DNA of 32,000 nucleotides from Candidatus Heimdallarchaeota archaeon (GTDB lineage Archaea > Asgardarchaeota > Heimdallarchaeia > Heimdallarchaeales > Kariarchaeaceae). How positions within the stretch are numbered: the first letter of the stretch is position 1; the number at the start of each line of letters is the position of its first letter. The stretch covers positions 510,001 to 542,000 of the forward strand of contig JASBSB010000001.1 in the NCBI GenBank assembly GCA_030149205.1, given 5' to 3'. Below, one piece after another: positions 21,885 to 21,971 of the stretch. The position numbers and the translations under genes were made by a program. The notes beneath the pieces were generated by a model. That model made no database searches. It saw nothing but the letters and a program-made list of their open reading frames with translations, and was not told where the DNA came from.

Positions 21885-21971
21885 GAGCTGGTAGTGAAGC
21901 TTGGTATCATGCTTGCTTGGGGAAAATATCCAATTTGCAAGTGATCGGGAGTTCAAATCTCCCCCAGTTCA
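21885..21971 (+). tRNA. tRNA-Pro(GGG) with a 13-nt intron at canonical position 37/38 (21923-21935); CCA not encoded
   Basis: Acceptor GAGCTGG/CCAGTTC+A73, D-stem GTGA/TCAT, anticodon stem CTTGC/GCAAG, loop TT-GGG-G|intron|T, T-arm GGGAG-TTCAAAT-CTCCC. TATA-like TTAAAATAA at 21851-21859; oligo-T immediately downstream. Confidence 0.93.

Follow-up and report, generated by a model that had tools for sequence, protein, structure and literature searches.

The single tRNA gene in the 32,000-nt stretch of Candidatus Heimdallarchaeota DNA analyzed here (the window) raises the question of whether a natural proline tRNA can carry a G3-U70 pair, by the textbook rule sufficient for alanine identity, without bringing alanine to proline codons. 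A first-pass annotation had proposed this tRNA-Pro(GGG) as a dual-identity substrate causing natural Pro-to-Ala mistranslation at CCC and CCU. We lean instead, without great confidence, towards tolerated drift, damped by the neighboring A2-U71 pair and by competition from the prolyl-tRNA synthetase (ProRS), with alanine misincorporation at or below about 1%.

The tRNA-Pro(GGG) gene and its setting

The gene occupies positions 21885-21971 on the forward strand and is matched by Rfam (RF00005, 51.4 bits, E 2e-8), by ARAGORN with introns allowed, and by a genome-wide tRNA census. The 5′ acceptor strand, G1 A2 G3 C4 U5 G6 G7, lies at 21885-21891 (A2 at 21886, G3 at 21887) and the 3′ strand, positions 66-72, at 21964-21970 (U70 at 21968, U71 at 21969, C72 at 21970). 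Re-reading of the sequence and its fold bears out the acceptor pairs originally claimed, G1-C72, A2-U71, G3-U70, C4-G69, U5-A68, G6-C67, and G7-C66, together with the discriminator A73 at 21971, which is also found in relatives' proline tRNAs. The CCA end is not encoded. The anticodon GGG (21919-21921), reading CCC and CCU, is followed by G37 and then, at the canonical 37/38 site, by a 13-nt intron (21923-21935) that folds with the anticodon arm as a bulge-helix-loop splice motif. A UGG anticodon, reported by ARAGORN (as tgg) when introns are not searched for, is an artefact; the intron search gives ggg. The architecture and the splice motif are those described in an Asgard tRNA-intron census (bioRxiv 10.64898/2026.10.13.758758) for canonical 37/38 BHB/BHL introns; the preprint does not mention U70.

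The cloverleaf has the features of an archaeal tRNA-Pro(GGG) in its G35/G36 anticodon, G37, G1-C72, and A73, and its D arm is of a proline type common to relatives' proline tRNAs. The pairs G2-C71 and G3-C70, proline elements in A. pernix (PMC9976931), are absent, A2-U71 and G3-U70 standing in their place. Since both pairs vary freely among proline tRNAs of the class Heimdallarchaeia, neither is defining for tRNA-Pro there.

A TATA-like box was noted by eye at 21851-21858, about 30 nt upstream, and a U-tract directly after A73 (21972-21975) is likely a terminator or 3′ trailer; a sigma-70 promoter scan, whose model is not archaeal, gave nothing above chance. No adjacent complementary stretch longer than chance-length matches suggests an antisense partner, and an 11-nt complement 238 nt downstream (22184-22194) was judged to be chance. 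The flanking genes, both on the forward strand, encode the RNA polymerase subunit Rpo3/D (20309-21139; Pfam PF01000, PF01193) and pyruvate phosphate dikinase (22197-24941; PF01326, PF00391, PF02896). An 87-aa hydrophobic ORF to which no function was assigned (21527-21790, forward strand) lies just 5′ of the tRNA gene. Archaeal rpoD and L18e-L13-S9 genes usually form a co-directional operon; here (18902-21139) they are on opposite strands. Further along (26293-27448), a roadblock/LC7 gene is accompanied by one for an Arf-like small GTPase, both eukaryotic-signature genes typical of Asgard archaea.

The genome (3.3 Mb, approximately 35% GC, 93.5% complete) has 39 tRNA genes by a custom census that allowed T-loop introns, to which ARAGORN adds the initiator. 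Proline is served by one gene each for the GGG, UGG, and CGG anticodons; the census found no backup copy of tRNA-Pro(GGG), which is thus the only G34 reader of CCC and CCU, half of all proline codons. Many tRNA genes of this genome have T-loop (59/60) introns, often with a 37/38 intron as well (for example L034, C2:480666-480783); ARAGORN and Rfam miss most of these, and ARAGORN at low threshold returned noise.

All three alanine tRNAs of the genome have G1-C72, G2-C71, G3-U70, C4-G69, and A73. [quoted passage not shown] Three members of the alanine identity set (G3-U70, A73, and G1-C72) are therefore present, and G2-C71 is missing.

An error in sequencing or consensus calling at T21968, or a minority allele there, would dispose of the question. 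A 373-kb contig built separately in the Logan assembly (run SRR23576960) is identical over 8745 bases, T21968 included, which rules out assembler error; sample-level artefacts are less firmly excluded, because the two assemblies may share their reads. The G3-U70 form was seen in one genome only, and a metagenome scan for the exact 5′ half of this tRNA matched no other sample. The base nevertheless agrees with a genome-wide surplus of wobble pairs and of U70, and with the identical contig this makes an error very unlikely.

Rarity and origin of the G3-U70 pair

Among 94 proline tRNA genes captured from 83 genomes of the class, this tRNA-Pro(GGG) alone has G3-U70; the others have G-C, C-G, U-A, or A-U at 3-70. 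The gene was also the sole match among 301 Asgard genomes, by a pattern search of low sensitivity outside the order (few genes were captured there, and those with T-loop or long introns escape the pattern). When JGI metagenomes were searched for proline tRNAs of the same geometry, intronless and with G3-U70 and A73, a single match was returned, from a phage-like tRNA array. This array (L222:1055-1129) has eight tRNAs, its tRNA-Pro(UGG) having G1-C72, U2-G71, G3-U70, and A73. The great rarity of G3-U70 in proline tRNAs suggests that it is usually costly there, and it is probably selected against in general. It is the pair that is rare; A73, which archaeal tRNA-Pro conserves strictly (PMC9976931), is normal here.

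The genome as a whole offers a likely origin. Wobble pairs are enriched about threefold in its acceptor stems: 19 of 252 non-alanine acceptor pairs, vs. about 6-7 of 280 in two relatives (p 0.008). Four of its tRNAs (Pro(UGG), Pro(CGG), Val(CAC), and Arg(UCG)) have A3-U70 where sister genomes have G3-C70, and its tRNA-Arg(GCG) has G3-U70 where the same-genus genome G001 has G3-C70. Replacement of G-C by A-U generally passes through a G-U intermediate. The two non-alanine G3-U70 pairs in the genome are close to the 2.2 expected from its wobble rate (about 1.3 in a hand calculation that omits position 2). For tRNA-Pro(GGG) itself, sister genomes have U3-A70 or C3-G70 and most members of the family G3-C70. 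Given the excess of wobble pairs and a local rate that predicts such pairs, the most likely course would be a C-to-U change of an ancestral G3-C70 to G3-U70 during an AT-ward drift of the lineage. The tRNA-Arg(GCG) gene (G000:C7:316796-316869, reverse strand; locus L180) has G2-C71, G3-U70, and G73.

Alanine identity and the charging enzymes

A search of 47 genomes of the order for any tRNA with G3-U70 returned alanine tRNAs, nearly all with G2-C71, and recurring arginine tRNAs: Arg(UCG), with an alanine-like 5′ start, in 13 genomes of one genus (g11), and Arg(GCG) in three genomes, of which this is one. Six of the g11 Arg(UCG) genes were cut out; they have the same acceptor stem as tRNA-Ala(UGC) of several g11 genomes, but G73 as discriminator (loci L084, L089, L090, L099, L104, and L106, with L100 in the more distant relative G026). 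Arg-to-Ala recoding in g11 was considered and rejected, the CGA and CGY codons of G026 being aligned to arginine. G2-C71, G3-U70, and A73 were not seen together in any non-alanine tRNA of the order, and all the alanine tRNAs listed for it have G2-C71 except one second copy with U2-A71. This copy, an Ala(GGC)-like gene (G006:C267:23757-23829, reverse strand), also has a T-stem mismatch. In 35 diverse Asgard genomes outside the order, the same search gave alanine tRNAs and chance matches only. What looked like G3-U70 in a gene of family f23 was due to an error of register. The alanine identity of the order thus appears, from this distribution, to need G2-C71 and A73 besides G3-U70, a pattern resting on few and related cases that is consistent rather than statistically proven.

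There is some precedent for such a requirement. G3:U70 alone is reported by Galili et al. (PMC5029447) not to separate alanine tRNAs in 86 archaea. According to a tRNA-identity review (PMC9976931), G2-C71 is conserved in known non-mitochondrial tRNA-Ala; its table has no archaeal alanine set defined by experiment. With the Nanoarchaeum equitans alanyl-tRNA synthetase (AlaRS) alpha subunit, alanylation was lowered by A2:U71 and by changes at A73 and kept with U2:A71, the pair of the exceptional G006 copy (PMC11392972), the effect of A2:U71 being partial and measured on minihelices with a G:U-independent enzyme fragment. In the Archaeoglobus fulgidus AlaRS structure, the backbone carbonyl of Asn359 contacts the amino group of C71; in tRNA-Pro(GGG) this site would meet the carbonyl of U71. 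AlaRS may therefore charge tRNA-Pro(GGG) poorly because A2-U71 replaces the G2-C71 that alanine identity in the order seems to need, and A2-U71, one of the escapes listed in the first-pass annotation, is most likely the brake on alanylation. The archaeal-type ProRS would read G35/G36 (its main determinants; PMC9976931), G1-C72, and A73, probably tolerating any 3-70 pair, as the variety of pairs in the class suggests. It would then win the competition with AlaRS, leaving tRNA-Pro(GGG) an ordinary essential tRNA charged overwhelmingly with proline.

A shifted AlaRS specificity had been put forward as another escape from mischarging. [quoted passage not shown] A G3:U70-independent enzyme of the mammalian mitochondrial type, in which the motif has diverged and tRNA-Ala has lost G3-U70 (PMC6451123), was rejected, as all three alanine tRNAs here keep the pair and the motif is mostly kept. 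The change of Asp450 to Gln as a co-adaptation to tRNA-Pro(GGG) was likewise rejected: 29 of 30 members of the order lack the Asp (18 Gln, 5 Glu, 5 Thr, 1 Ser), and it is present in just 7 of 29 AlaRS of other Asgard archaea. By analogy with A. fulgidus, where the D450A mutant still charges G:U and is impaired only in rejecting G3:C70 (PMC6055181), and with N. equitans, whose AlaRS has Ile at this position and is still G3:U70-dependent (PMC11392972), the change would give no protection from G3-U70 charging, though it may increase the weight of neighboring contacts. With the loss Asgard-wide, this escape route is weakened.

The Tyr95 position of AlaRS is likewise variable. Most of the sampled Asgard genomes have Gln, Glu, Thr, Ser, Val, Arg, Ile, or Leu at residue 450 (L043:526-3288, reverse strand; L050-L079; L190-L218), the motif in genus g11 reading Tyr-Gln-Asn-Asn-Gly. 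In three genomes (G056, G221, and G095; L216-L218) the protein that best matches AlaRS is short (about 600 aa) and divergent.

The meaning of CCC and CCU, and competing readings

If tRNA-Pro(GGG) delivered much alanine, its codons should not behave as proline codons do. Over 688 ortholog pairs with G001, CCC and CCU align with proline in 87% of columns and with alanine in 1.6%, vs. 87% and 1.8% for CCA and CCG (Fisher p 0.73 and 0.74). Against G026, the alanine share is 3.6% for CCC/CCU and 3.3% for CCA/CCG (p 0.79). In columns where both relatives agree, CCY is used at 250 of the 572 with proline and at none of the 702 with alanine. CCY makes up 0.50 of proline codons here and 0.53 in the sister genome; it is not depleted at conserved prolines (OR 0.96, p 0.44), nor avoided in the most conserved genes beyond the level of other codon boxes, although such tests would miss a change that is recent or a leak amounting to a few percent. 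On these alignments, reassignment and heavy, long-standing ambiguity are excluded, and CCC and CCU still mean proline. Adaptive recoding, with the two codons reassigned to alanine or largely ambiguous (>20%), has the tRNA sequence alone in its favor and, with the empty alanine columns, the well-filled proline columns, and no alanine excess at CCY in either pairwise comparison, is scarcely credible. The G3-U70 pair is not evidence of an altered genetic code. Of the original dual-identity proposal, the pair itself is real; substantial mistranslation at CCC/CCU is contradicted by the alignments and by the lack of codon avoidance.

A smaller leak is harder to dismiss. On its own, G3:U70 confers alanine acceptance on tRNA-Cys, -Phe, and -Tyr and on yeast tRNA-Pro (PMC8583063, PMC9976931, PMC5389508); these transplants, together with the agreement at five of seven pairs and A73, count against tolerated drift, as do the rarity of G3-U70 in proline tRNAs and the failure to find a trans-editor. 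Because such transplants usually work, and because yeast with about 6% Pro-to-Ala substitution grows almost normally (PMC5389508), the main rival is a tolerated natural ambiguity, in which AlaRS charges a real share of the tRNA and 1-10% of CCC/CCU codons yield alanine, the change being recent or mild enough to leave no trace in codon use. G1-C72, G3-U70, C4-G69, and A73 are all as in an alanine tRNA, Asn359 is kept, G:U charging in A. fulgidus survives without Asp450 (PMC6055181), and there is no close relative by which to date the change. Set against this are CCY usage, which shows no avoidance, conserved prolines and the most conserved genes included; A2-U71, unlike every alanine tRNA seen in the order; and the position of this tRNA as the only G34 reader for half the proline codons, whereas the yeast tRNA-Pro with G3:U70, which was no longer a ProRS substrate in vitro, was a single allele with further copies beside it. 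We regard such a leak as possible but doubtful.

The same absence of editors bears on whether mischarging might be neutralized afterwards, by U70-to-C editing, a nearby modification, or an unrecognized Ala-tRNA-Pro deacylase. In the 93.5% complete genome, no PF04073 (ProXp-ala/YbaK/INS), DTD1/ATD-family, or PF02580 gene was found; PF04073 is present in 22 of 47 genomes of the order. The ProRS (on C2) is a 478-aa archaeal type without the INS editing insert, and the one free AlaX is, by family, a Ser/Gly editor. This weakens the trans-editing route of the first-pass annotation and, on the other side, favors the leak. An editor could of course fall in the missing part of the assembly, and vertebrates keep a mischargeable G4:U69 tRNA-Thr whose alanine is cleared by cross-editing (PMC9976931, PMC8583063). 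A dedicated remedy for a change confined to a single genome is nevertheless unlikely. We know of no U-to-C tRNA editing in archaea, and consider neutralization improbable. Tolerated drift, with A2-U71 and ProRS holding alanylation down, remains the reading we prefer.

Parallels and implications

Natural non-alanine tRNAs with G3:U70 are already known in general; a literature search found no report of a single-copy proline G3:U70 tRNA with A73, nor of the Heimdallarchaeia arginine cases. The nearest parallel is that of the yeast suppressors SUF9 and SUF2, C70U mutants of tRNA-Pro(UGG/AGG) (Hoffman et al., PMC5389508). They share with tRNA-Pro(GGG) a proline body and anticodon and G1-C72, and arose by the same C-to-U step from G3-C70 to G3-U70 that is suggested here. 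They are selected mutants among several normal copies, giving about 6% alanine (the loss of ProRS charging was seen in vitro), whereas tRNA-Pro(GGG) occurs naturally and is the only G34 reader; it has A2-U71 and A73, and its codons give no sign of mistranslation. Human non-alanine G3:U70 variants (PMC11415595) and vertebrate G4:U69 tRNA-Thr and tRNA-Cys mischarged by AlaRS (PMC8583063) are similar in placing an alanine-type wobble on a non-alanine tRNA; those belong to multi-copy families with demonstrated mischarging and, for Thr, cross-editing, and any mischarging of tRNA-Pro(GGG) is putative. Streptomyces tRNA-ProX (PMC11415595) also involves a proline/alanine identity conflict, but in the opposite direction, with proline placed at Ala, Asn, and Thr codons by accessory genes with many non-canonical bases in many species; here a core, canonical tRNA is changed at one base in one genome. 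Other archaeal non-alanine G3:U70 tRNAs, implied though apparently not named by Galili et al. (PMC5029447), and the order's Arg(UCG/GCG), share a natural and apparently tolerated G3-U70, which implies that alanine identity requires additional positions. The arginine cases have G73; with A73, tRNA-Pro(GGG) is one step nearer the full alanine set, 2-71 being the only acceptor-end difference left.

These tRNAs are natural test substrates: the order supplies arginine tRNAs with acceptor stems that differ from alanine only at base 73, and a tRNA-Pro(GGG) that, near its end, differs from an alanine tRNA only at 2-71, along with an AlaRS lacking the supposedly conserved Asp450. Poor charging of tRNA-Pro(GGG) would imply that alanine identity in these archaeal relatives of eukaryotes needs 2-71 and 73; good charging would imply a natural, tolerated mistranslator. 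The latter prospect, a tentative one, is of a free-living Asgard archaeon without editors that mistranslates a few percent of CCC/CCU as alanine through its only tRNA-Pro(GGG). To our knowledge, such a leak would be the first case of a fixed, single-copy G3:U70 mistranslator in an archaeon.

Two additional genes have unusual structures. One, at L289:1500-1603 in G080 (with a similar gene in G071), is tRNA-like; both its D stem and its middle region are long, additional bases separate the T stem from the acceptor, and its isotype was not assigned. The other, L174 (G002:C133:3097-3166), is an extra tRNA with a CGC anticodon, an alanine-type acceptor, an encoded CCA, and a glycine-like D arm, and is unlike the tRNA-Ala(CGC) that G002 otherwise has.
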